From contig JAJSAL010000044.1 of NCBI GenBank assembly GCA_024274705.1, positions 1 through 46,365 of the forward strand: a stretch of DNA of 46,365 nucleotides, given 5' to 3'. This DNA is from Spirochaetota bacterium (GTDB taxonomy: Bacteria; Spirochaetota; Spirochaetia; SPDA01; JAJSAL01). Positions within the stretch are counted from its first letter, which is position 1. The number at the start of each line of letters is the position of its first letter. Under the pieces are notes generated by a model that ran no database searches, was not told where the DNA came from, and saw nothing but the letters and a program-made list of their open reading frames with translations. Below are positions 5,064 through 26,050 of the stretch, in pieces. Both the position numbers and the translations under genes were made by a program.

Positions 5064-5072
5064 ACCAGGCTG

Positions 5073-7250: not shown

Positions 7251-7266
7251 GTCCGGATCCTCCAGC

Positions 7267-8478: not shown

Positions 8479-8491
8479 GCTTAAGCAACCG

Positions 8492-9361
8492 TTATCCTTT
8501 TAAAGCTCCGGCGGAAATTCCGCTGATAAAATCTCTCTGCATCAGCCACATGACCAGCAGCACCGGGAAAACCACGACGCACCCCATTGCGGCCATGGGA
8601 CCCCAGATAAGTCCTTTATCCGTTATAAATCCGGCAATGATGACTGTCAGCGGCTTTGCCTTGTTTACCGTGAGAATTACAGCATAGAGAAATTCATTCC
8701 AGCTGTAAACAAAGGTAAGCATAGCCGTGGCAACCAGGCCCGCTTTTACCATGGGGGTGGTAACAAAAATAAACCGCTGAAGAAGCGAACAGCCGTCCAG
8801 CATGCTCTGCTCTTCCACCTCGTAAGGAGCTTCCGCATAAAATCCTATCATCAACAGTATGACCAGGGGCAGATTGAAGCTGGCATTCATGATGATGAGG
8901 GCGAATACACTGTCCATGAGCCGGATAGAACGTATTATGTAGAAAACCGGAACAGCTACGACCACGGCGGGATACATTTTCTGTATCAGGAACCAGCCCG
9001 CCAGGATCTGCTTGAACCGCTTCGGCAGGGCCCCGTTGATCAGGGTATATGCAGCCATACTGCCAAAGAGCGTCGTGACAATGGTAGTGCCGGCGGCAAT
9101 GAAAATTGAGTTCATCAGCCCTTTGAGCATCCCGTATTTTACTACTGCATCGGTAAAATTCTGAAATGTAATCCGTGTCGGGAATATTACAGGAGGATCC
9201 GCAAAGTACTCCTGCTCCACCTTAAAAGCGTTGGTGACAAGCCAGTAAAAAGGAAACAGAATCACAATAAAAAGAAGGATCATGACGATCACCCTGACGG
9301 GGAAGCTGAGGAAATTACTCAGATAATTGCCGCTTTTCATCAATCGTGCATCTCTTCCCAT
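8492..9361 (-). CDS. Carbohydrate ABC transporter permease (MalG-like).
   Basis: Six-TM permease with an EAA-like loop (AKPLTVIIAGFITDKG). Its start overlaps the stop of the upstream permease gene by 1 nt. Confidence 0.8.
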   Translation of the reverse strand: MGRDARLMKSGNYLSNFLSFPVRVIVMILLFIVILFPFYWLVTNAFKVEQEYFADPPVIFPTRITFQNFTDAVVKYGMLKGLMNSIFIAAGTTIVTTLFGSMAAYTLINGALPKRFKQILAGWFLIQKMYPAVVVAVPVFYIIRSIRLMDSVFALIIMNASFNLPLVILLMIGFYAEAPYEVEEQSMLDGCSLLQRFIFVTTPMVKAGLVATAMLTFVYSWNEFLYAVILTVNKAKPLTVIIAGFITDKGLIWGPMAAMGCVVVFPVLLVMWLMQRDFISGISAGALKG

Positions 9362-10278
9362 TATCCCAACCTCTTCAGCTGCCGTGTCCGTAACCGGATA
9401 AATCCCATTGCTATCAGCGACATGGAAAGAATGAAGAGGATGGCTGCCGCTGACGAGTAGCCGACCCTCAGAAACTTGATTCCCTGCCTGTAAATGTAGG
9501 TAGGCAGCATTTCCGTAGCATTACCCGGGCCCCCCTGGGTCATGACGAAAATAGTATCGAAAATCTTGAACGCATCGATAAACCTGATCATGGCAACGAT
9601 AATGATAACCGGCGCCGTAATAGGAAAAACAACCATCCTGAAAACGTTCCATGACGAAGCACCGTCAACCCTCGCGGCATCGAGAAAGCTCTTCGGTATT
9701 GCTTTTATAGATGAAAGGACAAGAATTGCGACGAAAGGAACGAACTGCCAGCAGTCAACAAAAATAATCGTATATATGGCGATCCGGTAGTCACCGAGCC
9801 AGGAAACATCGGGAAGCCCGACAATATTGAGAAGATAATTAATGATTCCATATGTCCGGTCCAGCATCATTCTCCACAATGTACCGGAAGCAACAGGAGC
9901 GATAATCATGGGTATGAGGAGGACCGTTATGAGCAGGCGGGACAATTTGTTATCATCGGATAGCATCATGGCAATGATTATTCCAACGACAACCTGGATC
10001 GATACCGAAAGGACTGCAAAAAACACGTTATTCCTGAGTGCCTGGAGAAAAAGTTCGTCCTGAAACATTCCGATATAATTCTGGAGCCCGATAAAAATGG
10101 GCCGGGGCTGCAGATTGAGCTTGTATTTGAAAAAACTCAGCACAAAACCGTACCCGAGAGGAATAAAGGCAGCCACAAGAAGGATTACGAACACCGGGAC
10201 CAGAAAGAGCCATGAATAGAGTATATCTGTTCGATCCTGGGCGATGGTACGCGAAATCAACATGAAAAGGACCTCCAA
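9361..10278 (-). CDS. Carbohydrate ABC transporter permease (MalF-like).
   Basis: Polytopic membrane protein with a permease EAA motif region (LDAARVDGASSWNVFRMVVFP). Confidence 0.8.
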   Translation of the reverse strand: MEVLFMLISRTIAQDRTDILYSWLFLVPVFVILLVAAFIPLGYGFVLSFFKYKLNLQPRPIFIGLQNYIGMFQDELFLQALRNNVFFAVLSVSIQVVVGIIIAMMLSDDNKLSRLLITVLLIPMIIAPVASGTLWRMMLDRTYGIINYLLNIVGLPDVSWLGDYRIAIYTIIFVDCWQFVPFVAILVLSSIKAIPKSFLDAARVDGASSWNVFRMVVFPITAPVIIIVAMIRFIDAFKIFDTIFVMTQGGPGNATEMLPTYIYRQGIKFLRVGYSSAAAILFILSMSLIAMGFIRLRTRQLKRLG

Positions 10279-10346
10279 AAAAGGGGTCAGACCACTCTAT
10301 TATGAACAGTCCAACCCCACAATATCAATGACAGCAGGCGCTCTCT

Positions 10347-11645
10347 CTACCTGCCGGTATTCTTGACCCCCTGGGGCGGCGGATAATCCGAAAGGATTTT
10401 ACCTAAACCGTCCGCCATGAAGGATACCGCTTTATCCATGTTCCACTGACCGGTTACGAAGTTAGCTACGGAATCCCGGATAACCGCTTCGGCCATTGTT
10501 CCGGCAGGAATTCTCCACCAGATGATCGCTCCCCTCTCTGAAGCTTCTTTGTGGGGATACAGCTTGCTGTTTTTTACCTCAGGCTTATTCCATACGGAGA
10601 TTCTCGACGGAAGTATGGAGTAGTCCACAAAGTTCTGCAGCTGCTTTTCCTTGCTTGTATAGAATTTTATCCATTCCCATGCAGCGTCCTTATTCTTTGC
10701 TGCTTTCGGTATCCCCATGTCCCAGGAAGAAAGCACGGTAACGCCGTTTTTTGCGAAAGGAATCGGTGCAATCGCCCATTTCCCTACAACCTTGGATTTC
10801 TCAGGGTCATCCCCGTTGGGAGCAATGGTAAGGGTCGGCCAGGAAAATGCAATGGCTGCGTTGCCCTGAAGGAAAGCGGCATCGGACTCAGGCAGTCCCC
10901 ATGACGGAGCAGCCGGATCGGCATAATCGAACCACTTCTTCACGATAGTGAGGGCTTCCCTGGTCTCCGGGGAGTCGATGGTCAGGTTCCAGTTTTCGTC
11001 GGCCCACCTGCCGCCCAATGACCATTGTACCATCATCCAGAGTCCGCTCAACTGCTCCTTCACACCGGGAATAGCAACAGCGTAGAACTTATTGACGGGA
11101 TCGTGGAGGCTGTCACAAATTGCGAAGAACTCGTCCCATGTCTGGGGAAACGTATCGATTAAATCGGTCCGGTACGCCAGTGTTTGCGGGGTGTTTGAGA
11201 ATGGAATTCCCATAATCTTGCCGGCCCACTTCCCGGACTGCTCCCAGAGCCCCGGGAGAATATCCCCGGAATCCCAGTTATCACGTTCTATATACGGTTT
11301 TAAATCAACCATATAGGGTTCGAACTCACCGTCCCATTGGCATGCGGGGGTCACCACATCATAGGTGGAATCTCCCGTGGACAGGGCAAGACCCATTTTC
11401 TCATACAGGGTGATGTACGGAAAATCCACAACCTCAAGCTCTATTCCTGTCTTATCCTTGAACTCGGATGCATACTCTTTCGCCGCATCTGCATACGTCG
11501 CTGAAAAATACAACACCGTCACCTTCTGGCCTGCATAGGGTTTCCCCTCTTCCGCTGCAGCAGGGGCTTCCTTTTGCCCTCCCGCAAAAACACCGAACAC
11601 TGCCGAAGTAAGCAGCACCAGGGTCAGTAGCCCAATCTTCTTCAT
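10347..11645 (-). CDS. ABC transporter extracellular solute-binding protein (sugar-binding family 1).
   Basis: Signal peptide MKKIGLLTLVLLTSAVFGVFAGG. It is ~430 aa and sits in an operon with two permeases. Confidence 0.8.
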   Translation of the reverse strand: MKKIGLLTLVLLTSAVFGVFAGGQKEAPAAAEEGKPYAGQKVTVLYFSATYADAAKEYASEFKDKTGIELEVVDFPYITLYEKMGLALSTGDSTYDVVTPACQWDGEFEPYMVDLKPYIERDNWDSGDILPGLWEQSGKWAGKIMGIPFSNTPQTLAYRTDLIDTFPQTWDEFFAICDSLHDPVNKFYAVAIPGVKEQLSGLWMMVQWSLGGRWADENWNLTIDSPETREALTIVKKWFDYADPAAPSWGLPESDAAFLQGNAAIAFSWPTLTIAPNGDDPEKSKVVGKWAIAPIPFAKNGVTVLSSWDMGIPKAAKNKDAAWEWIKFYTSKEKQLQNFVDYSILPSRISVWNKPEVKNSKLYPHKEASERGAIIWWRIPAGTMAEAVIRDSVANFVTGQWNMDKAVSFMADGLGKILSDYPPPQGVKNTGR

Positions 11646-11713: not shown

Positions 11714-11758
11714 TTAATGTAAATATTACATAATGTTAAGATGTGAAGGTCTATATTA

Positions 11759-11787
11759 TTGACATATTACTAAATATGACCAATAAT
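11759..11787 (+). promoter_or_regulatory. Candidate sigma70 promoter TTGACA-17-AATAAT for the URO-D-fragment / AGE / URO-D operon.
   Basis: Hexamers read directly. They lie ~40 nt upstream of the ATG at 11827, which has an AAGAGGAAG Shine-Dalgarno. Confidence 0.35.
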
Positions 11788-11826
11788 ATACAATCTTACC
11801 ATAATAATATTATCAAGAGGAAGTAC

Positions 11827-12447
11827 ATGGGTGACACGGGATTCATTCGTATCGAAAACGCTCTGTTAAAGAAACCGAACTACCGTATCCCCTGCTTTCC
11901 CCTGATAGATGCGGCCTTCGCATCATCCTGCAGCGCAGGGATCAGGTTTGCCTGGATCGGGGAAGGGTTAGGTTCCGGAAGTCTTATTTCACCGGAACAG
12001 TACAAGGAGTTTGTTCTCCCCTTCGAGAAGATAATAGCTGATCGTTTTCGCAGCCAAGGTGTGTTAACCTTTCTCCATATTTGCGGCAACACTACGAACG
12101 CCCCTACATATATCGCCCGTTCCGGTGTTGACGGTTTCGATCTGGATTATCCTGTCGATATAACCGTGGCTGTCGATGCCCTCTACCCGGAAATCACGAT
12201 CAAAGGGAATATCAATCCCGGTTTATTCCTGCCCGGCAGATCAGAGGAGTTGGAACGTGCATGCAGAGACACTATTGCAGTTGCGAAAAATCTGAACAAC
12301 TTTATCTTTTCAACAGGCTGTCTCGTGCCCAGAGATTCCTCGAAGGAAGCCTTTTACACGATGCAGGATCATGTAGTTTACAATAGAAGGAGTAGGTCTT
12401 ATGGATATCAAGCGAATAGAAGAGTTGACGACCCGGTTTTACCGTGA
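11827..12447 (+). CDS. Truncated URO-D/MtaA-like protein. Only the C-terminal ~200 residues of the fold are present; it retains the zinc-ligand-like HICG and GC motifs.
   Basis: LTFLHICGNT and FSTGCLVP correspond to the MtaA/CmuA His-x-Cys...Cys zinc motif. The N-terminal ~130 residues of the fold have no counterpart upstream, where the sequence is an AT-rich promoter. A good Shine-Dalgarno precedes the ATG at 11827. Confidence 0.55.
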   Translation: MGDTGFIRIENALLKKPNYRIPCFPLIDAAFASSCSAGIRFAWIGEGLGSGSLISPEQYKEFVLPFEKIIADRFRSQGVLTFLHICGNTTNAPTYIARSGVDGFDLDYPVDITVAVDALYPEITIKGNINPGLFLPGRSEELERACRDTIAVAKNLNNFIFSTGCLVPRDSSKEAFYTMQDHVVYNRRSRSYGYQANRRVDDPVLP

Positions 12448-13645
12448 TCTGGTGGAGGACACACTTCCTTTCTGGATAAAAAACGGAATTGACCGCACCT
12501 ACGGCGGTTATACGACCTTCCTGGACAGGAAGGGGGAGATGTTGAGTACTCATAAGCCTATGTGGGTGATGGGCCGGTTCGCATGGCTCCTCGCCAGGTT
12601 ATACAATACTCTCGAAGCACGGGAGGAGTGGCTGGAGCTGGCACAACACGGAATAGCCTTTATCCGTAAATACGGGTTCGATAATGACGGCCGGATGTTT
12701 TATGCAGTCGAACAGGACGGAAGACCTATCCGAAAAAGAAGATACCTGTTCACGGAAACCTTCGGCGTCATCGCCCTGGCAGAATACGCCAGGGCTGCAG
12801 GAGATAAAGATGCATTTGCTTTGGCTGAAAAAACGATGGGACTGATCCTGGAATTCTACAACGATCCCTCCAGGCTCGAAGCGAAATTCCTTCCGGATAA
12901 TTACTCGGTGAGAGATCACTCCACGGCCATGATTCAAATCAACACTCTGCAGGTTCTCAGAAGCGCTGCAATAGCTCTGGAAGAGAACGTTGAAATCGAA
13001 GGGTACGGCGATTATCAAAGTCTCATAGATCATGCAATTGATGAGATATTTTCCTATTTCGTAAAGCCTGAAAAAAAAGCAGTGCTGGAAACTGTCGGTC
13101 TCCAGGGGGAGTACTTAGGCTCAATCCCCGAAGGGCGCTGCATCAACCCCGGGCATCCCATAGAAACCGCATGGTTCATCATGGAAGAGGGAAAACACAG
13201 AAACGATGCCGAACTGATCAGGAAAGCTCTCCCCCTCCTCGAATGGTCCCTGGACCGGGGGTGGGATACGGAATACGGCGGTTTATTCTACTTCGTCGAT
13301 ATCGAAGGCCGGCAGCCGGTACAACTGGAGTGGGATATGAAATTATGGTGGCCTCACAATGAAGCGATATACGCCACCATTCTCGCATATTCCTTAACAG
13401 GTGAGGACAAGTTCGAAAAATGGTTCGAAAAACTCTATGAGTGGTCCCTCACACGGTTTCCGGACAGGGAATATGGTGAATGGATCGGATATCTTCACCG
13501 GGATGGAAGCCCTGCACTGGATATGAAAGGTAATTACTTTAAAGGCCCCTTCCACCTTCCCAGGCAGCAGCTTAACTGCTGCCTTCTGATGAAAGGAATG
13601 CAGGAAAAGGGAGGGAGAGAGCCCGGCTTGAGAACCGAAACATGA
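12401..13645 (+). CDS. N-acylglucosamine 2-epimerase (AGE) family protein, covering the cellobiose/mannose/sulfoquinovose epimerase-isomerase family.
   Basis: The motifs YGGYTTFLDRKGE...KPMWVMGRFAWLLARLYN are typical of the AGE family (alpha6/alpha6 barrel). The Shine-Dalgarno is GAAGGAG. Confidence 0.8.
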   Translation: MDIKRIEELTTRFYRDLVEDTLPFWIKNGIDRTYGGYTTFLDRKGEMLSTHKPMWVMGRFAWLLARLYNTLEAREEWLELAQHGIAFIRKYGFDNDGRMFYAVEQDGRPIRKRRYLFTETFGVIALAEYARAAGDKDAFALAEKTMGLILEFYNDPSRLEAKFLPDNYSVRDHSTAMIQINTLQVLRSAAIALEENVEIEGYGDYQSLIDHAIDEIFSYFVKPEKKAVLETVGLQGEYLGSIPEGRCINPGHPIETAWFIMEEGKHRNDAELIRKALPLLEWSLDRGWDTEYGGLFYFVDIEGRQPVQLEWDMKLWWPHNEAIYATILAYSLTGEDKFEKWFEKLYEWSLTRFPDREYGEWIGYLHRDGSPALDMKGNYFKGPFHLPRQQLNCCLLMKGMQEKGGREPGLRTET

Positions 13646-14658
13646 CTTCCCTGGAACGCACCAGGAGGGCCATCAGAGGCGAACCGGTAGATCACATACC
13701 TTTTTTCCCCATTTCTCTTGCAAGCACCTGCCGGATCATGGGAGTTAAACAGCGATGCTTCTCCCTCGAACCGGAGGTCATGGCTGAAACCCTTATCAGG
13801 TTCCGCGAGAGGATCGGCTGCGACGGTATTTATGTCTCCAGGGATAACTGGGTGTACCACCAGGCCCTGGGAGGCGAAGTGGTATTTCCCGAAGATGCCG
13901 AATCCTTTGCGGAAGAGACTGTTCTGCAGCGGATAGGAGGGTTTAACAAGCTTTCCATCCCCGAACCATGGAACTCGCCGGGGATGAATACGGTGCTCAC
14001 CGCCGCCCGGATGGTCGTGGATGCCCTGGGTGATAGTTATTACATCCAGGCGAATATAGATACCGGTCCATTCAGTCTAGGAGGTGTTCTTCTTGGTGCG
14101 GAGAGGTTCCTTCATACTATCGTATCCGAAAAGGAAGCTGAGGTTCAAAAGTTTCTGGAATTCTGTACAGATGTCGTAGTTGCGTATGGAAAGGCGATGA
14201 TTGAAACCGGGGTACACGGTATCCAGTTCGGAGACTCCCTTGCCAGCTTGTTAGGAGCGGAACACTTTAAACAATTTGCACTTCCATGGGAACAGGAAGC
14301 GGCAAACAGGCTTGGGAATCGTAATTGTGACATATGGATTCATATTTGCGGTAAAACCGACCAGTTTCTGCACCTTCTTCGGAAGGTAAACATACAGGGA
14401 TTCGAAGTTGATGCGAAAGTTCCCATGACGCTTGCCAGAGAACTCCTGGGAAAGGAAATCGCCCTTAAAGGGAACTTGGATACCACGTTTCTCCTCCAGG
14501 CAACGTCACAAGCAGTGTACAAGACTGCGCTGGATATATTACGCAGCGGCGGGTTCAAAACAGGTGTCATTATGTCTCCAGGATGCGGAGTACCACGTAT
14601 GACCCCAACGGAAAATCTCCTTGCTATCCGGCAGGCATGTAAAGACTACACGGTATAA
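13642..14658 (+). CDS. URO-D/MtaA-like protein (methyltransferase-fold, zinc-motif-containing), full length.
   Basis: N-terminus RTRRAIRGEPVDHIPFFP, plus IWIHICGKT (H-x-C) and a C-terminal SPGCGVP, as in corrinoid:CoM methyltransferase MtaA/MtbA. Its start overlaps the AGE stop (ATGA). Confidence 0.7.
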   Translation: MTSLERTRRAIRGEPVDHIPFFPISLASTCRIMGVKQRCFSLEPEVMAETLIRFRERIGCDGIYVSRDNWVYHQALGGEVVFPEDAESFAEETVLQRIGGFNKLSIPEPWNSPGMNTVLTAARMVVDALGDSYYIQANIDTGPFSLGGVLLGAERFLHTIVSEKEAEVQKFLEFCTDVVVAYGKAMIETGVHGIQFGDSLASLLGAEHFKQFALPWEQEAANRLGNRNCDIWIHICGKTDQFLHLLRKVNIQGFEVDAKVPMTLARELLGKEIALKGNLDTTFLLQATSQAVYKTALDILRSGGFKTGVIMSPGCGVPRMTPTENLLAIRQACKDYTV

Positions 14659-15715: not shown

Positions 15716-15746
15716 CAGTCCACCATTCCATCCGTCATCCAGGCCC

Positions 15747-15789
15747 GGCTTTCCGGTCACGATTCTTTTGTGACGGGAAAGCCTTTTTT
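15747..15789 (+). terminator. Rho-independent terminator after the secreted repeat protein gene.
   Basis: GGCTTTCCGGTCAC-(9 nt loop)-GTGACGGGAAAGCC forms a 14-bp stem with one mismatch, followed by TTTTTT. Confidence 0.75.
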
Positions 15790-15799
15790 AATGAATAAA

Positions 15800-15811
15800 T
15801 GGCACTTGCCA
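15800..15811. promoter_or_regulatory. Palindrome TGGCA-CT-TGCCA upstream of the SPFH operon, a candidate regulator-binding site. A possible -10 TATACT lies at 15837-15842.
   Basis: Read directly. It is not a sigma54 promoter, because the -24 and -12 spacing is wrong. Confidence 0.25.
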
Positions 15812-15876
15812 TCTGTATTTTCAATGCAATCAGTTCTATACTATGATTAGTGATACCGTGTAAACAGGAGGAATAT

Positions 15877-16893
15877 ATGGGTTTGTGGGATAAAGTCAAA
15901 GGTCAGCTTCGTTCGGTCATTCAATGGGAAAACCCATCACCGGATGCCTTGTTCGAACGGTGGACAGACCGTGGTGACGAGATAAAAAACGCTTCAAAAC
16001 TGATCGTAGGCCCCGGGCAGGGGTGTATCTTTATATATGAAGGGAGGGTGGAAGCCATCCTGATGGAAGAAGGTATCACCGACCTTTCCACCGAGAATAT
16101 ACCCTTCTGGACCACCATCTCCAATTTCATGCAGGCCTTCGAAAGTGAACATAAAGTAGGAATCTACTTTTTCCGGCGGACCAAATTCCTGGACCAGAAG
16201 TGGGGAACCCCTTCGGTAGTCAAGTACGAAGATCCGAAGTACAAATTTCCCGTTGGTCTTCGGAGCTTCGGCAACTATACCTTCAGGATAACCGAACCGG
16301 GAGCTTTTTTCGTGAATGTAGTCGGCGGGAGTACCGTATTTTCAGTCGGCGACCTTCGTCAGGTGCTGAATGCCAGGATCATCCAGAATCTTACCGACTA
16401 TATCGCCGAAGCGAAATTCAGCTACGCGGACATCGACGCGAACCGTGAAGAGCTTGCCGCAGGGATTCATGCGAAGATCGCTCCGGAATTTGTAAAACTC
16501 GGCTTTGAAATAAACGACTTCCGTATAGAAGGAACGAGCTTCGACGAAGACACCATGAAGAGGATCAACCGGATTGCGGATATGTCCGCAGAAGCCCAGG
16601 CCGCCCGTGCGGTGGGCCTCGACTATGCACAGATGCAGCAGTTGGAAGCTATGCGGGATGCGGCAAAGAACGAAGGCGGTGCCGCCGGCATGGGCATGTC
16701 CATGGGGGCCGGTCTCCAGTTCGGCCAGATGATGGCTGGATCCATGGCAGGCACACCCCAGCAGTCCCAGGGGAAGGGTTCCGCGCCGGATCCCGTGGAA
16801 AAGCTTAAGAAACTTAAAGTTATGCTGGACTCGGACCTGATCAGCCAGGCGGAGTACGATGAGAAGAAAAAAGAGATCTTAGGCTCGATGTAG
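15877..16893 (+). CDS. Soluble SPFH (band-7/stomatin-like) domain protein with a C-terminal SHOCT domain.
   Basis: Start taken at MGLWDKV, which follows an AGGAGG Shine-Dalgarno. The SPFH-like core is followed by a Gly/Met/Ala-rich linker and the C-terminal KLKKLKVMLDSDLISQAEYDEKKKEIL, which matches the SHOCT motif. Confidence 0.75.
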   Translation: MGLWDKVKGQLRSVIQWENPSPDALFERWTDRGDEIKNASKLIVGPGQGCIFIYEGRVEAILMEEGITDLSTENIPFWTTISNFMQAFESEHKVGIYFFRRTKFLDQKWGTPSVVKYEDPKYKFPVGLRSFGNYTFRITEPGAFFVNVVGGSTVFSVGDLRQVLNARIIQNLTDYIAEAKFSYADIDANREELAAGIHAKIAPEFVKLGFEINDFRIEGTSFDEDTMKRINRIADMSAEAQAARAVGLDYAQMQQLEAMRDAAKNEGGAAGMGMSMGAGLQFGQMMAGSMAGTPQQSQGKGSAPDPVEKLKKLKVMLDSDLISQAEYDEKKKEILGSM

Positions 16894-16913
16894 TCATCGC
16901 AGAGGTAAAAACC

Positions 16914-18725
16914 ATGATTAAACCCGGTAAACTCAAAAAGCTTTTCATAGTTCTCCTTATTCTCCTTTTCATATTCGGCACCGTATATGTATTCGCCCGG
17001 GCCGGTGGAGCCGGCGGAGGCAGAAGCAGCGGAGGAAGCGGCGGAGGTGATGGAGGCGCTGTCATCTTCTGGGTAATCATGCTGATGGTTCAAACTATCG
17101 GCCCCATCCCCACTGCCATCGTCGTTATCGTTGCCCTCATCCTTTTATCGGTCTTCGGTAAAAAGATGAAAGCCCAGTCACCTATGAAAAACCTGCACAT
17201 ACCTGAAAAACCGGCGGCCCAGGTGCGGGGGTACAAGGATTTTATCCGGTACAATCCCGGCTTTGACGAGGATGCATTTAAAAAGAAAGTGTCCTCCGCC
17301 TTTACCGCCATTCAGAACGCATGGTCCACCATGAACCTTTCCGGGGTACGACGTTACATATCAGACGGTGTATACCAGCGGTTCACTACCCAGTTCACCA
17401 TGATGAAACTGCTGAAGCAGCGGAATCCCATCGACAACATCAGGATTCACAGTGTAACTATAGTTAAATTCGAGACCGACGGAAGGTACGACAGCGTTGA
17501 CGTTGCGATAAAGGCGACTATGCGGGACAAATTCGTATGTGAAACCAATCATTCACTGGATTCTCCGGGAGGTGACGAGACATTTACCGAATTCTGGTCT
17601 TTCTTAAAGAAACGGGGTATAGAGGAAAAAGATATCTATTCGTCAAATTCCTGTCCCAACTGCTCTGCCCCTCTCCAGGAAGATATGGGTGAAATCGGGA
17701 AATGCGGCTATTGCGGCGTCATGGTCAACAGCGGTGAGTTCGACTGGGTGCTGTCGGAGATCACCCAGGCTGACGACTACTTCAAAGGAACAGCCCTGCA
17801 GAAAGCACAGAACCTCCATGGAAAGATACAGGCCCTTATCGAGGAGTACGAAGATTTCTCCGTCCAGCTCCTGGAAGACAAGGCAAGCAACGGGTATCTC
17901 CAGATACAGACTGCAATGGTACAACAGGACCCCGCCGTTATGAGGAGGTTTGTCACCGATGAAGCGTACGAAAAACTGAAAAGCCGGATTCCCGACAGGC
18001 CCATCGTATTCAACCGCCTGTTCTTAAACGATGTTTCCCTTATCGGGGCCAGTAAAGAAGAGAACCGGAGCATCCTCTTAGTGTCGGTGACACTCTCGTA
18101 CCAGCGGGTACTCCTTAAAGAAAACGGTAAAGCCGATATCATCGACCCATCAATCATTTCCCGGCCGGAGGTAATGGTCCTCCAGCGGGAAGCATACGCC
18201 GGCGAAACCAAGGGTTCTCTTTACAGTCACACCTGCCCGAGTTGCGGCGGGTCCGTACAGGATTCCCTGGATTTAAACTGTACATTCTGCGGAGTTCCCC
18301 TTAACAGCGAAAAAAGCGAGTGGATCATTGCGGACATCATGTCCATGGTTGAATACAGAAGCTATTTTCAGGAGAAGCGCAAAGGGCTGGATATAAAGGT
18401 CAGCCCGGACCTGATGGACAGCCTTTTTGAAGTGAAAGATTATGCTCTGAACAACGTGATGGTTATGATAGGTGCAGACGGCATCTTCGCGGAAGAAGAG
18501 AAAAGCTTTGCCCGGAGTATGGCCCGGAAATGGGGGTTCAACGCCGCACGGATTACTCCCCTCTTCGATCTTGCAAAAAGCGGCAGGCTCTCCATAAAGA
18601 TGCCTTCGGATCCGAACAAGAGGAGGGCGATCTACAAGCTCATGGTCAAGGCGGCAGAGGCGGACCAGGACGTCTCCCGGGAGGAAAAAGACCTTCTCGC
18701 ATTCGTAGAAAAAGAGTACCTTTAG
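16914..18725 (+). CDS. Membrane-anchored multidomain protein with two N-terminal TM helices flanking a Gly-rich loop, then two tandem units of (Tim44-like/NTF2-like domain + C4 zinc ribbon), then a C-terminal TerB-like domain.
   Basis: TM helices LFIVLLILLFIFGTVYVF and PIPTAIVVIVALILLSVF. Zinc ribbons CPNCSAPL...CGYCG and CPSCGG...CTFCG. The C-terminal MVMIGADGIFAEEEKSFARSMA...AIYKLMVKAAEADQDVSREEKDLL resembles the TerB helical repeats. The Tim44-like assignment is tentative. Confidence 0.6.
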   Translation: MIKPGKLKKLFIVLLILLFIFGTVYVFARAGGAGGGRSSGGSGGGDGGAVIFWVIMLMVQTIGPIPTAIVVIVALILLSVFGKKMKAQSPMKNLHIPEKPAAQVRGYKDFIRYNPGFDEDAFKKKVSSAFTAIQNAWSTMNLSGVRRYISDGVYQRFTTQFTMMKLLKQRNPIDNIRIHSVTIVKFETDGRYDSVDVAIKATMRDKFVCETNHSLDSPGGDETFTEFWSFLKKRGIEEKDIYSSNSCPNCSAPLQEDMGEIGKCGYCGVMVNSGEFDWVLSEITQADDYFKGTALQKAQNLHGKIQALIEEYEDFSVQLLEDKASNGYLQIQTAMVQQDPAVMRRFVTDEAYEKLKSRIPDRPIVFNRLFLNDVSLIGASKEENRSILLVSVTLSYQRVLLKENGKADIIDPSIISRPEVMVLQREAYAGETKGSLYSHTCPSCGGSVQDSLDLNCTFCGVPLNSEKSEWIIADIMSMVEYRSYFQEKRKGLDIKVSPDLMDSLFEVKDYALNNVMVMIGADGIFAEEEKSFARSMARKWGFNAARITPLFDLAKSGRLSIKMPSDPNKRRAIYKLMVKAAEADQDVSREEKDLLAFVEKEYL

Positions 18726-19250
18726 GAGGACAGGGACCGAATCTACCAGGCAATGTTACCCTGTATCGTTCGATTATACTGTCGTTCGTCAGAAGAGATA
18801 GTCTTTCATTTCTGGATTGATCGATCAGAATACGATCGAAAGGGTCATGGTGAATATCCGGAAGGTTTATAATCCGAACACTCGAGGCGGTGTAACCGGA
18901 AGCATTTCAGAACCGAGTGTCCATTAAAGAAAGATACATGTATCTAAAAGACACCTCATCTAAGAAATTCCTTTAGTATTTCTTCGGGTAAAGAATCATT
19001 AAAATTCTCACTTATCGAACCCTTATTTTCATTCCTGCCGGGCTTGCGGGAACGCCTTGGTTCCTTCAATGCAGTTATTGCAGGGGTTTTTCGGTGAACG
19101 CCGGCAGGGCGGAACCAGCAGGTCATCTCTTTCTTCAACGCTGGTTACTGGGCTTCTACGCTCCTGCTGTTGCTGATAACAGCAGTATAGCAAAAACAGT
19201 CGTCATACGGTAATCTTACAATCATTTTCATCAAAAAGGCAGATTCACCT

Positions 19251-22200
19251 ATGAGAAAATTGGGAATCGACATCGGGTCCATGTACCTCGGGGCCGTTCT
19301 CCTGGACACTGAGAGGGGAGTCCTCCATTGCTCCTACGGGGAGCACAAGGGGAATATCCTGGAATCTTTTGAGGCTGTACTTACAGATTCCCGTTTCAAT
19401 GAATTCGATACTATAGGCATAACCGGTCACCTTCGCCCCCACCAAGGCCTGGTATTCGATACTATCCTCTCCCTGGCCAGGGGAATCCAGTACCTGGTAC
19501 CGGGAAACAGTAATACCGTATCCATCGGCGGCGAGAGCTTCTGCCTTATCCTCTTCGATGAACATGGTACATACAAGGAGCATATCCTCAATCCTCCATG
19601 TGCCGCAGGTACGGGTAGTTTTCTTCAGCAGCAGGCGGAGAGGCTGGGCCTTTCGATTTCACAGTTCGCCGAAACGGCACGAGAATTCACCGGCAGGGCT
19701 CCTTCCATAGCCACACGGTGTTCGGTATTCGCAAAAACAGACATCATCCACGCCATGCAGGAAGGGTATTCCAGGGACTCTGTGAGTGCAGGACTGTGTG
19801 AAGGTATTGCAAGGAACATCATCGATTCCCTGATAAAAGGGAGGGAGCTGCACCCGCCCCTCGCGCTCACCGGCGGGGTTGCGCTGAACAAAAAAGTTAC
19901 GGCTTCTCTTTCTTCTCTATCCGGTGTGGAGATTACCGTCCCTGAACATGCCCATCTGGCAGGAGCTATCGGCGCCGCCCTGATAGGTTCAGCGGAATCA
20001 TGTACTCCCTCCAGCCTTATAGACGAGGAAAAACAGCACCGCCGGGTTCGTCCGGTAATCACGATGAATGGCAGTCATTATCCCGATTTCGCATCAGTAT
20101 TCTTTAACGATGAGGACGGGGTTGAAATCATGACATCCAGGGAGCAGATATACGAACTCACCGACCTCTACTTAGGGATAGATATCGGCTCAACAAGTAC
20201 CAAGGCCGCCCTGATAACAGGAACCGGCGATTTCGTAGCCGGCTTTTACACCGCTACAGGGGGTAAACCTGTCGACGCAACAGCTTCGATACTCAATACG
20301 GCCAGGAAAACCCTCAACACCGGTGTACTGCAGGCTGCGGCTGTTGCCGTTACCGGTTCCGGCAGAAAGATGATCGGGGAGCTCTTTTCCGCAGACCTGG
20401 TAATCGACGAAATAACGGCACACGCCAGGGCGGCGGTGTTCCTGGAACCGAAAGCGGACACAATCATCGAAATCGGCGGACAGGACTCCAAATTCACCCG
20501 CATTCGGAACGGAAATGTGTACTACTCCACGATGAATTACGTGTGTGCAGCCGGTACGGGCAGCTTTATCGAAGAACAGGCAAAAAAACTGGGGGTTCCC
20601 CTATCTGAGTTCTCCGATCTTGCCATGGGAAGCGAGTCCCCTTACTTAAGTGACCGGTGTACGGTGTATATGGAAAGGGATTTAGGTGTTCTGTTAGGTG
20701 AAGGATGGAAACGTTCCGGCCTTGCTGCTTCCACCCTTTTTTCGGTGCGGGACAACTATCTTTCGAAAGTAGTGGGGAAATCACCCTTAGGAGATTACAT
20801 CGTGTTCCAGGGAGCCACAGCAAGGAACAAAGCCCTGATAGCCTGTTTCGAAGAACTCTTACAAAAGCCGATCCATGTATCCGAATACTGTCATCTTACC
20901 GGTGCCATCGGCGCAGCTCTTCTGGCTGTGGATAAAAAGATTACCCGTTCCGTGTTCTCTTTCTCCTTAAGTGCTCACGCATCACGGGAAGAAACCTGTG
21001 CGGTCTGTTCCAACAACTGCCGTCTTACCGTGATCGAGGCGGATGGGAAAACAGCCGGATGGGGGATGAAGTGCGGGTCCGATTACGAAAGCCGGAAGCC
21101 CAGGAAGAAGGTCATTTCCGCACCGGAAAAACGTTACCGCCGGGCCATGGCCCACATGTACGAAACTCCCGGTGATCCGGGAGGGAATGGTATTACTGTG
21201 GCTGTTCCCGATTTTCTCTATAACTCAGGGTATGCCCCCTTGTGGTACAGTCTCTTCACCCGCATAGGATGCCGGGTGGTCCTGCCGAAACCCGGGAGGA
21301 ACCTGATGGACCAGGGAAAAAAACTGGTGAACTCCGATTTCTGTGCGCCCATGATCTATGCCCACGGCATGACGGAACAGCTCTTTGCCGAAAAACCGGA
21401 TTTTCTCTTCTCGCCTGTGGTGATCAACGATAACAACCCGGGCCAGGAGGAGTTTCTATTCAAGAAAAAAACCGAGGACGCCTATTTCTGTTACTACTCA
21501 CAGTACCTTCCGACGATAACCGAGCACTGTACATCCCTATCGGGAAAAGGGAACATAGCTTCCCCGGTTATCATGTTCAACGAAATGAGCCTTCAGGAGG
21601 TGGGAAATGCCATATTCTCAGGTACCGAACGATTCATTCCCGGACTGGTACTAAGGGACGTACATACGGCACTGGAGCAGGCTTACCTGGATTATCAAAA
21701 CTGTCTGGATACATGGAAAGAATCAGCCGAAGCCGCCGGGAACCCTTCCGGTGAACCGGAAATCGTCATCCTGGGCAGGCCTTACGTGATGTTCAATCCG
21801 GCCATGAACTTAAGTATTCCTGAAAAATTCGAGTCCCTCGGTGCCGGCGTCTACTGGATGGAAGAACTGGACCTTGCCGGTTTCCAGCCGGCGTTCAGCG
21901 CCCAATTTCTATCGAGGATGCACTGGCACTACGGAAAGGCGATCCTTAAGGCCGCTGAGTATGCGGCACAGAAAGATACCATGTTTCCCGTATTCCTCAC
22001 CTGCTTCAGGTGCAGTCCCGATGCATTCCTCTTAAGTTATGTGAAGGACATTCTGGAGCATTACGATAAACCGTTTCTCGTTCTTCAACTGGATGAACAC
22101 AGCTCAGACGTGGGATACGAAACCCGGATCGAAGCCGGACTCCACTCGTTCCGCAATTTCATTCGCGACCATGGAGACGAAAGAAAGACCGAAGCCCCTT

Positions 22201-23372
22201 CCCGGGTGAAGGACGATCCCCTCCTTGAAGGAGACACAGTGCTCATCCCCTACATGGACGGACTGATCAGCCGGTTCTGGGCTGCCTGTTTCAACAAGGC
22301 CGGTTATTCCAGCGTACTCCTGAATGCAGACGAAGTGTCCCTCAATACAGGGTACCGCTTTGCAAGCGGTGGGGAATGCATGCCCCTCGTATCAATTGCG
22401 GGCGGTGTTATCGAAGCAATGAAAGATAAAAACCTGGTACCGGAAAAGACCTACCTCTACCTTCCTACCCTGTGCCTGGCGTGTAACTTTCCCCAGTTTC
22501 CCGTTTTTTCCGCTATGGCGTTCCGGAACGCCGGCCTGGAAAAACTTAAAATCGGGCTGGTGAACATCATGTCCCCGGGAGACGTTCTCCCACACATCTT
22601 ATCGTTCCGCATCCTGGAATCCAACATCCTGGGGAGCCTGTTGTACAAACTCTATTTTCGGGTTAAACCCTATGAAATTGAAGCCGGCGGCACAGACAGG
22701 GTGTTCAAACAAAGTACCGGGAAGATTCTTTCCGGTATTTCCGGTGGGGAAGATCTGAAAAAAATCCTGAAAGATATCGTTGCCGATTTCAGCAGTATCG
22801 AAAGGGATGAGTCGGGAGGCAGGAAACCCCGCCTGGGCCTCTTAGGCGACCTCTATGTCAAGTTCAACGAAGTGGTTAATCAGAACCTCGTCGGCGTGGT
22901 TGATGAACTTGGGGGAGAACTTATCGTTCCTTCCCTTACGGAATATCCCTTTCACTTCTATGATGCAGACGTGCGCATCCACAACGACAATCCCAGGCCG
23001 TACCGCCTTCTCAAAGTAATCGAAGAACGGTACGAAAAAATCACCGAGGACCTTCTGGACGGATTATTGGAGCCTGATTTCAAGGAGTGTCTTACCCTGC
23101 TGGAAGAATACGGAATACGCCATTATATTGCCGGGGAAACGTCGATCAACCTTGGACGGGCACTGTACTGGATAAAGAACGGGCTGGTAGACGCGATTAT
23201 CCACGTGAATCCCATGTTCTGCTGCCCCGGGGTGGTAAGTGCATCGGTGTTCAGGAAGATTCAGGAAGATTTCCGTGTACCTATAATCGATATCTTTTAC
23301 GACGGAACAGGAGACCGGAACAGGGTACTGGTTCCCCACACCCATTTTCTCCGGGCGGCACGGGAACATTAA
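19251..23372 (+). CDS. Giant fusion protein carrying two BadF/BadG/BcrA/BcrD-type ATPase (CoA-substrate-specific enzyme activase) domains and 2-hydroxyacyl-CoA-dehydratase D-component-like (DUF2229) domains.
   Basis: Two ASKHA-type ATPase starts (LGIDIGSMYLGAVLLD and LGIDIGSTSTKAALI), Cys-containing dehydratase-like regions (CAVCSNNC, CLACNFPQ, C-terminal MFCCPGV), and a length of 1373 aa, typical of this uncharacterized family in anaerobes. Confidence 0.85.
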   Translation: MRKLGIDIGSMYLGAVLLDTERGVLHCSYGEHKGNILESFEAVLTDSRFNEFDTIGITGHLRPHQGLVFDTILSLARGIQYLVPGNSNTVSIGGESFCLILFDEHGTYKEHILNPPCAAGTGSFLQQQAERLGLSISQFAETAREFTGRAPSIATRCSVFAKTDIIHAMQEGYSRDSVSAGLCEGIARNIIDSLIKGRELHPPLALTGGVALNKKVTASLSSLSGVEITVPEHAHLAGAIGAALIGSAESCTPSSLIDEEKQHRRVRPVITMNGSHYPDFASVFFNDEDGVEIMTSREQIYELTDLYLGIDIGSTSTKAALITGTGDFVAGFYTATGGKPVDATASILNTARKTLNTGVLQAAAVAVTGSGRKMIGELFSADLVIDEITAHARAAVFLEPKADTIIEIGGQDSKFTRIRNGNVYYSTMNYVCAAGTGSFIEEQAKKLGVPLSEFSDLAMGSESPYLSDRCTVYMERDLGVLLGEGWKRSGLAASTLFSVRDNYLSKVVGKSPLGDYIVFQGATARNKALIACFEELLQKPIHVSEYCHLTGAIGAALLAVDKKITRSVFSFSLSAHASREETCAVCSNNCRLTVIEADGKTAGWGMKCGSDYESRKPRKKVISAPEKRYRRAMAHMYETPGDPGGNGITVAVPDFLYNSGYAPLWYSLFTRIGCRVVLPKPGRNLMDQGKKLVNSDFCAPMIYAHGMTEQLFAEKPDFLFSPVVINDNNPGQEEFLFKKKTEDAYFCYYSQYLPTITEHCTSLSGKGNIASPVIMFNEMSLQEVGNAIFSGTERFIPGLVLRDVHTALEQAYLDYQNCLDTWKESAEAAGNPSGEPEIVILGRPYVMFNPAMNLSIPEKFESLGAGVYWMEELDLAGFQPAFSAQFLSRMHWHYGKAILKAAEYAAQKDTMFPVFLTCFRCSPDAFLLSYVKDILEHYDKPFLVLQLDEHSSDVGYETRIEAGLHSFRNFIRDHGDERKTEAPSRVKDDPLLEGDTVLIPYMDGLISRFWAACFNKAGYSSVLLNADEVSLNTGYRFASGGECMPLVSIAGGVIEAMKDKNLVPEKTYLYLPTLCLACNFPQFPVFSAMAFRNAGLEKLKIGLVNIMSPGDVLPHILSFRILESNILGSLLYKLYFRVKPYEIEAGGTDRVFKQSTGKILSGISGGEDLKKILKDIVADFSSIERDESGGRKPRLGLLGDLYVKFNEVVNQNLVGVVDELGGELIVPSLTEYPFHFYDADVRIHNDNPRPYRLLKVIEERYEKITEDLLDGLLEPDFKECLTLLEEYGIRHYIAGETSINLGRALYWIKNGLVDAIIHVNPMFCCPGVVSASVFRKIQEDFRVPIIDIFYDGTGDRNRVLVPHTHFLRAAREH

Positions 23373-23496: not shown

Positions 23497-25521
23497 TCAG
23501 CTCCGGCCGAGAATTTTCAGCATGTAAAGCTCGATGTACTGTTTGAACTCATCTTTATGTTTTATTTTTTCAAACGCCTTGTTGCCGGCAAGCCTCTCTG
23601 CCATGGACCTGATTCCGTTGGCATCAGGCGGTTTGATCAGAATGCCCCTTTTAAGGCCACGGATGAAATCCCGGATCATGCTGTTCACATCTTCTATCAG
23701 GTCTTTCCGGGCTTTTTCATCGAAGAGAGGATTCCACCGGGTCGTGAGTTCCTTCATACTTTTATCCAGGGATCCATCGGGTCCGACAAATTCCAGGGTA
23801 AGGGCTGCTATGTGCTTCCGGAAAACAACCATTTTTGCTTTAGCAGTCTGGCCGGAAGATGGTGCATCCCCTGCCGGGGCTGATGGTTTTTCCCGGGCTT
23901 CCTGGGTAGACACTTTTTTAAACCCGGCCCTCGGTTTATACGAAGGAGCGGTGGAAATGAAACCTCTCTTACTGCTTTGCTCTCGCTCCTTCCCTTTCTT
24001 CTTCCCTGAACCCCGGAGCAGCCTTTTCACTAAAACGAAGAGGGGGCCGAATACAGGCATCACCTGCCACATGGGCAGCCGTCTCCTGGCGTCCGTAAGC
24101 AGTTCGTTTCGATCGAGTTTCAGAATTTCATCCAGGGGAATCAGTGACTTTTGATTCACGTCAAAAAGACGGTTGATATTGAACTCCACCTGCTTTGATA
24201 GTGTTACTTCGTCTTTCGTCAGATAAAGAAGTTCATAGTTGAGCAGGACATGGAGAAGAGGGTCTTCCTGCTTCAGCCGGTCCTCCAGGGTTTTTAAGAA
24301 CCGGTCGTCATCGTTCATCACGCTGGAAGATTTCAGGTCCTTCATCTGCTCCGCCCATTCATCCACGAAACTCTGGCGGTAGGCGGAAGACGCTTTGAAA
24401 ATCTTCTTTACACACAGCGGAAGCACTGCATCTTTATGAATATAGTATTGTTTCTTCTCCGGTGTATTCAGACGCAGGACTTCAGGAATCGCTTTATCCT
24501 GCTCAGGACGGGTTCTCCGTTCGAGATAGGAATTAAGCTCCTCCCGGGAAACCTTTTTCGTTAACAGGATCCCTTTAGGGTCTTTGAAATTATAAATATC
24601 GGATACTGAAAAGAAATAAGGTTCTCTTTTAAGGGATTTTTCCACATACCTGAATGCCTCATGGCTATCTTTTTCCTTCCGGATAAGCCCTTTGTGAAAC
24701 ACGGCATAGAAACCGATGAGAAACGATGCCTGACAGAAACTCGTCTCCTCTGCAAGTTTATTCGTTTTCGGCCGGTACTCCTGGATGATGAGGTTAGCCA
24801 GAGTAGTCCAGAAACGGAAGGAAAACTCTGTGGGCTTAAGTATCTGCTCCAGGCTTTTTCCTGTTTTCACCATGATATCGTCGATGGTATCTTTCAGTAC
24901 AATATCCTTTTTACCCAGCACACCCTGCAGCTTATTGAAAATGTAGTTCGCGTTTCTCCGGGTCCCCATATATACCTTGATCTTGCCCAGGGAAAGTTCC
25001 AACAGATTTTTTTTGAGAACATTCCCTGGAATTATCATGGAATTGAACCCCTCAGGAAACGTAAGAAGTACGATGGAGGTATCCGGTGTTGCCTCCTTCT
25101 CTTTCAGCCAATCCACAAATTCACTTTTTACATTAATGACGGTCAGCAGTTCCTGGGGAATCTTCAAATTCAGCGTTTCTTCCGTGGGAAACGGGATTTC
25201 GGGGTTGCCTTCGATCCTCCTGTACTCATCCTGAAGGGTATCCCCAAAAAAATCAGGATACAGAACACGATGAATGAGTGTATCTTCGTATTCGAGTTTT
25301 ATTCTTTTTTCCGATGCCAGGCTTTCCAATTCAGCAGTAAGCACTGTCGCAGGATTTTCAAGAAACATTTTCAGTTCCGGATGTTTTTCCTTATATTTTT
25401 CAGCGTAATTCTGCACAAAGGTTTCGAAAGGTGCATACATCAGGCTAGGACTTTTCTTTTTCGCAGCATAGTACCTTATAATTTTTAATACTTCATTACT
25501 CTCTGACATACTTAAGCCCAT
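23497..25521 (-). CDS. Large Lys/Glu-rich hypothetical protein with a single central TM segment. No recognizable domain.
   Basis: Long ORF with protein-like composition. The start is set at an internal Met to avoid a 14-nt overlap with the upstream DUF456 gene. TM segment MWQVMPVFGPLFVLVKRLL. Confidence 0.5.
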   Translation of the reverse strand: MGLSMSESNEVLKIIRYYAAKKKSPSLMYAPFETFVQNYAEKYKEKHPELKMFLENPATVLTAELESLASEKRIKLEYEDTLIHRVLYPDFFGDTLQDEYRRIEGNPEIPFPTEETLNLKIPQELLTVINVKSEFVDWLKEKEATPDTSIVLLTFPEGFNSMIIPGNVLKKNLLELSLGKIKVYMGTRRNANYIFNKLQGVLGKKDIVLKDTIDDIMVKTGKSLEQILKPTEFSFRFWTTLANLIIQEYRPKTNKLAEETSFCQASFLIGFYAVFHKGLIRKEKDSHEAFRYVEKSLKREPYFFSVSDIYNFKDPKGILLTKKVSREELNSYLERRTRPEQDKAIPEVLRLNTPEKKQYYIHKDAVLPLCVKKIFKASSAYRQSFVDEWAEQMKDLKSSSVMNDDDRFLKTLEDRLKQEDPLLHVLLNYELLYLTKDEVTLSKQVEFNINRLFDVNQKSLIPLDEILKLDRNELLTDARRRLPMWQVMPVFGPLFVLVKRLLRGSGKKKGKEREQSSKRGFISTAPSYKPRAGFKKVSTQEAREKPSAPAGDAPSSGQTAKAKMVVFRKHIAALTLEFVGPDGSLDKSMKELTTRWNPLFDEKARKDLIEDVNSMIRDFIRGLKRGILIKPPDANGIRSMAERLAGNKAFEKIKHKDEFKQYIELYMLKILGRS

Positions 25522-25558
25522 CTTAATATCGGGTATATGTTGTGTCAAGGAAAGGAGA

Positions 25559-26050
25559 TTATCCTGCCCCAAGGGCTTTTACAAAGAAATAGAAAATCGT
25601 GCCGGAAACAGCCAGTTTAAGGATGATTGCAAGCATGGTACCGAGAAAAACGCCCCACCCGGCCCTGAGGGCGTTTCTTTTATCCTTACTGAAGATCATC
25701 TCCCCGGCAACGGCCCCGAGAAAGGTAAAGATAAGCATACCGAAAGGGGGCAGGACAAAAATACCCACAATCATGCCGATTATCGAGCCCCGGATACCGG
25801 CTTTTGAAGCTCCCTTTTTCTTCGAAGTGATCACAGGAAGGAAATAATCGAGAAGGGTCACCACAGCGGTGATAACGGCCATGATAATCAGGAACACCGG
25901 AGAAAAAGCTTCCCAGTCCCGCATAATGGAAACGAGAATAAGAGCTATGTAGCTCAACGCCGGCCCGGGAATGATAGGCAGAACACACCCGATAAACCCG
26001 ACGATAACCGAAGCAAAGCCTAAGGCAATAAGCAGAATATCCAGTACCAT
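25559..26050 (-). CDS. DUF456-family small membrane protein.
   Basis: GFIGCVLPIIPGP motif and four TM helices, ~160 aa. Confidence 0.65.
   Translation of the reverse strand: MVLDILLIALGFASVIVGFIGCVLPIIPGPALSYIALILVSIMRDWEAFSPVFLIIMAVITAVVTLLDYFLPVITSKKKGASKAGIRGSIIGMIVGIFVLPPFGMLIFTFLGAVAGEMIFSKDKRNALRAGWGVFLGTMLAIILKLAVSGTIFYFFVKALGAG

Follow-up and report, generated by a model that had tools for sequence, protein, structure and literature searches.

Architecture of the locus

The stretch of DNA analysed here, called the window below, comprises the 46,365 nucleotides of contig JAJSAL010000044.1 from a Spirochaetota bacterium (GenBank assembly GCA_024274705.1). Our subject is a pair of genes on its forward strand. 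Gene A (15877-16893, +) was assigned with Pfam and BLASTP as coding for a 338-residue SPFH protein of the Band_7_1 (YdjI/SamI) clade, and gene B (16914-18725, +), which follows after a spacing of 20 nucleotides (nt), codes for a 603-residue membrane protein with Tim44-like domains, zinc ribbons and a TerB-like tail. An earlier note on this DNA had described a soluble SPFH-SHOCT gene with a 603-residue membrane protein gene 20 nt further on, and both open reading frames (ORFs) are present at these positions. From sequence comparison, the pair is probably a widespread relative of the YdjG/YdjI (SamG/SamI) membrane-stress module of Bacillus subtilis, and as such has a precedent.

The pair is preceded by an intrinsic terminator with a 14-bp GC-rich stem and a run of six T (15746-15796, +), identified by reading the sequence and by RNA folding (-26.2 kcal/mol for the hairpin 15746-15790, after which the T-run follows). 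This terminator is that of the upstream gene, which codes for a Big-domain protein, and it sets the 5' edge of the unit formed by genes A and B. A hairpin with a T-run is also located directly upstream of the SPFH gene in the relatives L085 and L001-L003. Because a terminator precedes the SPFH gene here and in relatives, the pair looks like a separate transcription unit, in agreement with the earlier note. The latter had further described the pair as bracketed, which is correct for the upstream side only. The 525-nt gap between gene B and the next gene (18726-19250) contains no terminator-like site, no Rfam match and no convincing ORF, its single ORF being one of 60 residues on the minus strand (18956-19138). 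In the syntenic contig L085 the sequence of this gap is not preserved. The Rfam scan of the window detected no RNA element.

The palindrome ATGGCA-CT-TGCCAT, previously taken as a sign of regulation, is present at 15799-15812. The window contains 14 perfect palindromes of the same 6+2+6 form, which is about the chance frequency, and the palindrome is missing upstream of the orthologous genes, including those of the syntenic contig L085, of L001-L003, L040, L084 and others. Judged from the sequence, its spacing is not that of a sigma-54 promoter either. On these grounds it was rejected as an operator.

The soluble SPFH protein

The ORF of gene A opens with a GTG at 15850 and stops at 16893. The ATG at 15877 is the likelier start, because the ribosome-binding site AGGAGG (15866-15871) stands six bases before it and all orthologues begin with MG(L/I)W. 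The protein matches the Pfam family Band_7_1 (PF13421) with an E-value of 1e-41 and 143.2 bits for a cut-off of 24, and is also matched by the general Band_7 model. It consists of an N-terminal beta region and an SPFH domain (15958-16584, +; Pfam), a helical segment, a Gly/Met-rich low-complexity linker (residues 265-304; 16669-16788, +) and a C-terminal SHOCT motif (PF09851; 16798-16881, +). The SHOCT match covers the last 28 residues and is marginal (27.8 bits for a cut-off of 27); the motif is present in the precomputed annotation of most gene A orthologues. A single cysteine is found in the protein. Since no 19-residue window reaches a hydropathy above 1.3, the gene A product is predicted to be soluble, without a membrane anchor of its own. 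Its initial description as a soluble SPFH protein ending in SHOCT is thus supported by both Pfam families and by the absence of a hydrophobic segment.

Orthologues of gene A share 60-81% identity and range from Spirochaetota to Gammaproteobacteria. A profile search of the PDB with gene A retrieved no solved structure at E<=1e-3.

Membrane region of gene B

The membrane-anchoring region of gene B (16941-17162, +) was delineated from hydropathy, from the helices of an AlphaFold2 model and from invariant residues. By hydropathy, the protein has hydrophobic stretches only at residues 2-34 and 47-87, with the loop AGGAGGGRSSGGSGGGDG between them. The first transmembrane segment (residues 10-29) ends in an invariant ARA-GGAGG motif and is followed by a Gly-rich loop of 18 residues (30-47), for which a position outside the membrane is predicted. 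Residues 48-83, the second hydrophobic region, contain a Gly-Pro kink and are followed by KKMK. The AlphaFold2 model, calculated from a 28-sequence alignment with a mean predicted local distance difference test (pLDDT) score of 78.9, has helices at residues 4-30, 47-62 and 64-86 and a pLDDT below 50 in the loop. Hydropathy and model agree with the two transmembrane segments around a poly-Gly loop that had been proposed.

Lys/Arg clusters can be read in the sequence before the first and after the second hydrophobic stretch, so that both ends are predicted to be cytoplasmic and the loop outside. The ARAGGAGG motif, directly after the first segment (16995-17054 with the loop, residues 28-47), is invariant in the family alignment. 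As ARA resembles the AxA site of signal peptidase I, the first segment may be removed as a signal peptide, in which case the protein would begin outside with a Gly-rich N-terminus. The large domain of gene B would be cytoplasmic under the hairpin and the cleaved-signal topology alike. Distant homologues carry Ser/His-rich or Gly/Ser/Tyr-rich low-complexity sequence in place of the Gly-rich loop.

Tim44-like domains and zinc ribbons

The membrane region is followed by two tandem units. Unit 1 (17229-17780, +; Pfam and Foldseek) comprises a Tim44-like domain of the NTF2 fold (residues 106-233), a Cys4 zinc ribbon and the helix NSGEFDWVLSEITQADDY. Unit 2 (17856-18356, +; Pfam and alignment of the units) comprises a second Tim44-like domain and a second Cys4 zinc ribbon. 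The Pfam family Tim44 (PF04280) matches gene B in two stretches with an E-value of 5e-20 and 72.6 bits for a cut-off of 29.6, and matches all 28 aligned homologues. Pfam matches to zinc ribbons are weak; the ribbon cysteines themselves (C247, C250, C264 and C267 in unit 1, C441, C444, C456 and C459 in unit 2) are all invariant among the 28 homologues. The two units align with 21% identity and an E-value of 5e-11, which indicates an internal duplication.

When the gene B model was compared with the PDB using Foldseek, the C-terminal domains of Tim44 (2cw9, 3qk9 and 2fxt) and mL45 were retrieved at a probability of 1.0, together with other NTF2-like folds. The architecture of the earlier note, twice a Tim44/NTF2 domain with a zinc ribbon, is thus upheld by Pfam, by the AlphaFold model and by Foldseek, and the profile check suggested there for the repeated domains gave Tim44/NTF2, above the Pfam cut-off and with matching folds in the PDB.

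Tim44 and mL45 bind membranes and lipids. The Tim44 C-terminal domain, mL45 and the TimA/Tim44 adaptors (NF033779) share the NTF2-like fold of gene B, and domains of the Tim44/mL45 type hold soluble machinery at the membrane from the inside, which we count as a further likeness. Because its fold matches the Tim44 C-terminal domains and mL45, the membrane anchor of the mitoribosome, gene B could act as an adaptor at the membrane surface. Unlike these proteins, gene B carries the domain in two copies, both joined to a Cys4 ribbon, and ends in a TerB-like tail; it is associated with an SPFH protein, not with a translocase or a ribosome. With the NCBIfam models of TimA and of the Tim44 adaptor family (NF033778 and NF033779), gene B stays below the cut-offs (46.6 for 80 bits and 22.5 for 200 bits).

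The TerB-like C-terminal domain

The last part of gene B (18426-18722, +) was identified from Pfam, a profile search and the structural model as an all-helical TerB-like domain with two ADG/ADx...EE motifs. In gene B itself the Pfam family TerB (PF05099) stays below its cut-off (E 2e-3, 18.7 bits for 24.4). It matches 10 of the 28 family members, and in the SPFH-adjacent homologue of locus L083 both TerB (29.7 bits) and DUF533 (39 bits) exceed their cut-offs. In a PDB search with a profile of the last ~113 residues, two of the three best matches were the TerB-like protein 2ou3 and TerB itself (2jxu). Modelled separately, the domain reached a pLDDT of 81.5 and gave 2ou3 as its sole confident PDB match (probability 0.99, template modelling score 0.52, the next match being at 0.13). 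The TerB-like assignment proposed earlier, sub-threshold in the protein of this window, is therefore retained on the evidence of the family, the profile and the structure.

Gene B shares with the TerB/DjlA-N/DUF533 (YebE) superfamily a helical fold and paired ADG...E motifs in its last ~100 residues. It departs from the standard of that superfamily by its score under the Pfam cut-off, by its location outside a ter operon and by carrying the domain as an optional appendage. Many Tim44 proteins linked to SPFH genes indeed end after the second ribbon. For this reason TerB is an optional, accessory element of the family, and Tim44 with its zinc ribbon is the conserved core of the partnership.

TerB domains are reportedly part of Ter stress and conflict systems (Anantharaman et al. 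2012). The presence of such a domain in gene B raises the idea of a Ter-type system for chemical or metal stress, or of an anti-phage system resembling abortive infection, in which TerB and the ribbons would sense metal, tellurite or infection; the giant triple-AAA protein encoded after the module in one relative (L083, described below) could be cited in its favour. The dispensability of TerB in many SPFH-linked members argues against it, as do the lack of other ter genes, mobile elements and defence genes in the window and the near-absence of both genes from phages and plasmids. We consider this explanation very improbable.

The defence part of the idea was rejected. PADLOC gave no match for gene A and only a chance-level match to Cmr7 for gene B (E 0.036), phage searches returned one unannotated 4-kb fragment for gene A and none for gene B, and the neighbourhood of the pair consists of housekeeping chromosomal genes. 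A plasmid-borne module was also rejected: only distant SPFH paralogues of ~30% identity on chromids and one Tim44 match (Monoglobus) were found.

Conservation of the pairing

The family of gene B has more than 900 homologues, with 516 representative clusters at E<=1e-30 among 1.84 billion proteins. We surveyed the 80 best genome loci of this family for an SPFH gene within 6 kb. Such a gene is located immediately upstream of the gene B homologue in 14 loci, 4 from Spirochaetales and 10 from Chlorobiaceae. The 66 loci in which none was found belong mostly to Leptospirales, Bacteroidales and other Spirochaetota. Among the 80 loci, no family besides SPFH is a neighbour in more than 8.

Three orthologues of gene A were chosen arbitrarily and all three had a Tim44-domain neighbour. 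A census anchored on gene A covered 83 SPFH loci. A Tim44-type gene is adjacent on the same strand in 15 of these (13 downstream, 2 upstream). In 10 others a divergent TPM gene lies upstream of the SPFH gene, with a Tim44/zinc-ribbon gene behind in 9 and a contig end in the last one. The commonest arrangement (36 loci) has downstream a soluble protein of ~220 residues with one N-terminal ribbon and two PF13453 ribbons. Eight loci show another arrangement, and 14 could not be determined owing to contig ends.

The lineages in which a Tim44-type gene adjoins the SPFH gene are Spirochaetales, Chlorobiaceae, Methylococcales (together with the TPM gene), a probable Bacteroidota metagenome-assembled genome (MAG) and a Clostridium. 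The Clostridium record is Monoglobus pectinilyticus, in which a gene for a TIM44-like protein with a ribbon is followed at 15 nt by that of a Band_7_1 protein whose C-terminus bears a double ribbon. Measured in five loci, the gaps between SPFH and Tim44 genes were 12-109 nt. Band_7_1 SPFH proteins are thus associated with Tim44/zinc-ribbon proteins in at least five distant lineages and in several gene orders, and the association is facultative. The conservation of the pairing, by which the earlier note proposed to judge its idea, is confirmed insofar as the pairing recurs across genomes and phyla, and not for the 66 of 80 gene B loci without an adjacent SPFH gene or the 36 of 83 SPFH loci with the soluble multi-zinc-ribbon partner.

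These 66 loci, and the lack of any other conserved neighbour, would be expected if gene B were a stand-alone membrane protein, for instance a Tim44-like lipid-binding or lipid-transfer factor, next to gene A by accident or in a loose relationship only. Some members of the family bear the Joint Genome Institute name 'predicted lipid-binding transport protein (Tim44 family)', and the lipid and membrane binding of Tim44 and mL45, whose fold was matched here, would fit such a factor. However, adjacency in at least five distant lineages, with differing gene orders and a variant containing TPM, is hard to obtain by chance, and the short intergenic gaps together with the terminator upstream of the pair also speak for a common unit. 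Independence of the two genes appears to us quite improbable.

Several other neighbours of SPFH genes were observed in the census. The alternative ~220-residue partner carries an N-terminal CxxCSAPLP..CxYCG ribbon, the two PF13453 ribbons and a C-terminal amphipathic helix. It is encoded directly 3' of the SPFH gene at L092, L100, L104, L109-L111, L127 and ~30 more loci, and its gene is often trailed by one for a protein with cyclic nucleotide monophosphate (cNMP)-binding and HDOD domains. In the probable Bacteroidota MAG (L083), the order Tim44-zinc ribbon-TerB protein followed by SPFH protein precedes a gene (7197-10862) for a 1221-residue protein with three AAA+ modules, a candidate ATPase for remodelling the module. 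At L167 (Leptospirales MAG, 5992-6792) and L162 (metagenome, 2511-3302), near-identical proteins of ~265 residues are encoded within ~10 nt downstream of the SPFH gene. They have a transmembrane segment, a highly charged low-complexity region of K, D, R and H, and a C-terminal globular domain, and have no Pfam match. Finally, a Band_7_1 paralogue of ~30% identity lies on the Ralstonia solanacearum megaplasmid (L166, 4551-8143) in a DUF350-SPFH-DUF4178-speD operon, a different, polyamine-linked SPFH context (PMC11237479).

Relation to the YdjG/YdjH/YdjI module and to SPFH-NfeD operons

In B. subtilis, YdjI (SamI) requires the membrane proteins YdjG and YdjH for its localisation to the membrane, and once there recruits PspA (PMC8581546). 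According to Ravi et al., YdjG combines a pair of zinc ribbons with an NTF2-like domain and a transmembrane segment, and YdjH is of the TPM type (PMC11237479). We fetched the B. subtilis locus (L168) using a YdjI sequence as bait, and took as evidence only this locus and its database protein P0242, 98% identical to the bait. The locus is ordered PspA, YdjG (for which Pfam detects zinc ribbons only), YdjH (TPM) and YdjI (Band_7_1 and a ribbon). BLASTP aligned gene A with YdjI over 265 residues at 26% identity and an E-value of 2e-30. The statement that the pair lacks a characterised homologue is therefore wrong for gene A, which is a homologue of YdjI/SamI within the same Band_7_1 clade.

The two systems have further traits in common. 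Each of the SPFH proteins, gene A as well as YdjI, is a soluble member of Band_7_1 in which a low-complexity linker follows the SPFH domain, and in both cases the adjacent partner combines zinc ribbons, an NTF2-type fold and transmembrane segments (the fold of YdjG being that given in PMC11237479). A TPM protein like YdjH is also present in the Methylococcales relatives. They differ in that gene A ends in SHOCT whereas YdjI ends in a zinc ribbon, and in that gene B has the order transmembrane region, twice Tim44 and zinc ribbon, then TerB, whereas YdjG has two zinc ribbons, then the NTF2-like domain and the transmembrane segment. SamGHI also comprises pspA and a TPM gene, neither of which was found in the window.

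The zinc ribbon is the element for which direct alignments were obtained. Using hhalign, the gene B family was aligned with YdjG over the ribbon only (31 columns, probability 84%, E 8e-6), and the gene B ribbon with that of the alternative soluble partner through a common CPxC(G/S)APLP...CxYCG pattern (probability 87%, E 4e-6). With 24-31 columns, these ribbon alignments are suggestive only. In Bacillota the SPFH protein itself carries the ribbon (in cis), and elsewhere the partner carries it (in trans), which provides support of the Rosetta-stone type for a link between SPFH protein and partner. In the Methylococcales orthologues, a TPM gene and a Tim44/zinc-ribbon gene stand beside the SPFH gene, an arrangement that mirrors the triad of YdjH, YdjG and YdjI. 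It is the strongest argument that Tim44/zinc-ribbon proteins and YdjG may be functional counterparts.

A comparison with SPFH-NfeD operons is also instructive. In E. coli QmcA-YbbJ and the archaeal stomatin-STOPP pair, the SPFH gene is likewise tightly linked to that of a membrane-protein partner, presumably within one complex. Unlike these SPFH proteins, gene A is anchorless and belongs to the Band_7_1 clade. No NfeD domain was detected in gene B or in the gene upstream of the pair, in line with the earlier suggestion of a partner other than NfeD.

The B. subtilis system offers another way to interpret the pair. In a 2026 preprint, SamI is proposed to restrain stress signalling by SamG and SamH, its loss resulting in SamH-dependent constitutive signalling (bioRxiv 10.64898/2026.02.06.704340). 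By extension, gene B might be an envelope-stress sensor, with the Gly-rich loop exposed and TerB and the zinc ribbons as cytoplasmic output, whose activity the SPFH protein would restrain. The invariance of the ARAGGAGG motif at the loop would suit such a sensor, as would the histidine kinases and response regulators adjoining relatives of the module in Methylococcales and the cNMP-binding HDOD protein beside the alternative partner. Gene B has, however, no recognisable output domain such as a kinase, cyclase or DNA-binding domain, the pair has no regulator gene beside it in the window, and the B. subtilis signalling phenotype needs the TPM protein SamH, for which no equivalent was found here. 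We regard a sensor held in check by its SPFH neighbour as rather unlikely.

Proposed function of the pair

The explanation that we prefer, and to which we give about an even chance, is that genes A and B form a variant of the YdjG/H/I-type module lacking PspA and TPM, in which gene B would be the membrane anchor or receptor of a soluble SPFH oligomer. It draws on the domain content, the predicted topology, the homology of gene A to YdjI and the adjacency of both families, recurrent in several phyla, as reported above. Gene A and YdjI belong to one Pfam family, YdjI needs YdjG and YdjH, and gene B shares the domain vocabulary of YdjG; moreover, the adjacency with short gaps recurs across phyla, including in a variant that contains TPM. 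The ribbon found in cis or in trans, the fold match to Tim44 and mL45, and the housekeeping surroundings without defence signals and with essentially no phage copies count in its favour as well. From these facts we infer that gene A binds gene B, which of the two recruits the other, and what the complex does in the cell.

Under this proposal, gene A would form ring- or cage-shaped oligomers beneath the membrane, as other SPFH proteins do. Gene B would be anchored either by a hairpin with its N-terminus inside, or by a single transmembrane helix after cleavage of a signal peptide, the Gly-rich loop being outside in either case. Its Tim44-like domains, each capped by a Cys4 ribbon, would lie on the inner leaflet, and the zinc-ribbon/Tim44 unit would dock the SPFH oligomer, possibly with TerB also in contact. 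The SHOCT motif and the Gly/Met-rich linker of gene A may aid assembly at the inner leaflet. The complex would then serve membrane maintenance or the surveillance of envelope stress, as YdjG/H/I does in B. subtilis, here without an adjacent PspA or TPM gene.

Several observations weigh against this proposal. The similarity between gene B and YdjG was not detected beyond the ~30-residue ribbon, and no Pfam Tim44 match was obtained in YdjG. Searches of the 46-kb window by tblastn with B. subtilis PspA, with YdjH and with the Methylomicrobium TPM protein returned nothing significant, and Pfam scans of its other large ORFs detected neither PspA nor TPM; as the contig covers 46 kb only, such genes may lie in other parts of the genome. 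Most gene B loci of the survey (66 of 80) have no SPFH gene nearby, and SPFH orthologues of ~65% identity take other partners in most loci. Because of the latter observation, the partnership must be non-obligate, or functional with unlinked genes.

A broader version of our proposal can be formulated from the ribbon comparison. Tim44-like/zinc-ribbon membrane proteins could be general and ancient receptors of anchorless Band_7_1 SPFH proteins throughout the bacteria, as NfeD is for those of the stomatin type. The CPxCGAP...CxYCG ribbon would be the docking element, acting in cis in Bacillota or in trans when carried by a Tim44-type membrane protein or by the soluble multi-ribbon protein. We put it forward as a tentative idea, more probably wrong than right.

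Other genes of the window

Further genes were noted in the window. On the minus strand, a cluster at 333-6080 codes for a MoxR-type AAA_3 ATPase, a DUF58 protein, a transglutaminase-like protein and a PQQ/BamB-like beta-propeller, and resembles an operon of the Bat/aerotolerance type. Three ORFs of the URO-D family (6129-7250, 11743-12447 and 13642-14658) are distributed around a ROK regulator, a sugar ABC transporter and an N-acetylglucosamine 2-epimerase-like gene. The middle one aligns with no more than the C-terminal portion of the URO-D model and extends into the ORF after it, so that the gene may be incomplete or its start miscalled. Downstream of the pair, 19251-23372 codes for a 1373-residue fusion of two BcrAD/BadFG ATPase modules with DUF2229, of the coenzyme A-enzyme activase type. 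A 691-residue ORF without Pfam match (23497-25572, -) adjoins a DUF456 membrane protein.

Significance

In every domain of life, SPFH proteins take part in organising membranes. To our knowledge, partners have been described for few of their clades only, namely NfeD, FtsH and YdjG/H, and we likewise know of essentially no function for bacterial Tim44-like proteins. A literature search by domain and family names found no description of an association between SPFH and Tim44 proteins in bacteria, and the publications consulted on YdjGHI do not mention Tim44. What was known is thus the theme of a Band_7_1 SPFH protein with YdjG/H; what is new is a simpler variant in which a Tim44-like/zinc-ribbon/TerB protein would take the place of the anchor.

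The pair, whose family comprises hundreds of representative clusters, ties an unusually conserved soluble SPFH protein (~65% identity across phyla) to the bacterial Tim44-like proteins. With it, the recently characterised SamGHI paradigm of Bacillus would reach Gram-negative phyla as a simpler system of two genes that lacks PspA. The pair also designates the zinc ribbon as a candidate docking element. Were the broader idea of Tim44/zinc-ribbon proteins as general receptors true, the Tim44 fold would ancestrally have served to hold soluble assemblies against the membrane from the inside, which would bear on the origin of Tim44 and mL45 in mitochondria.

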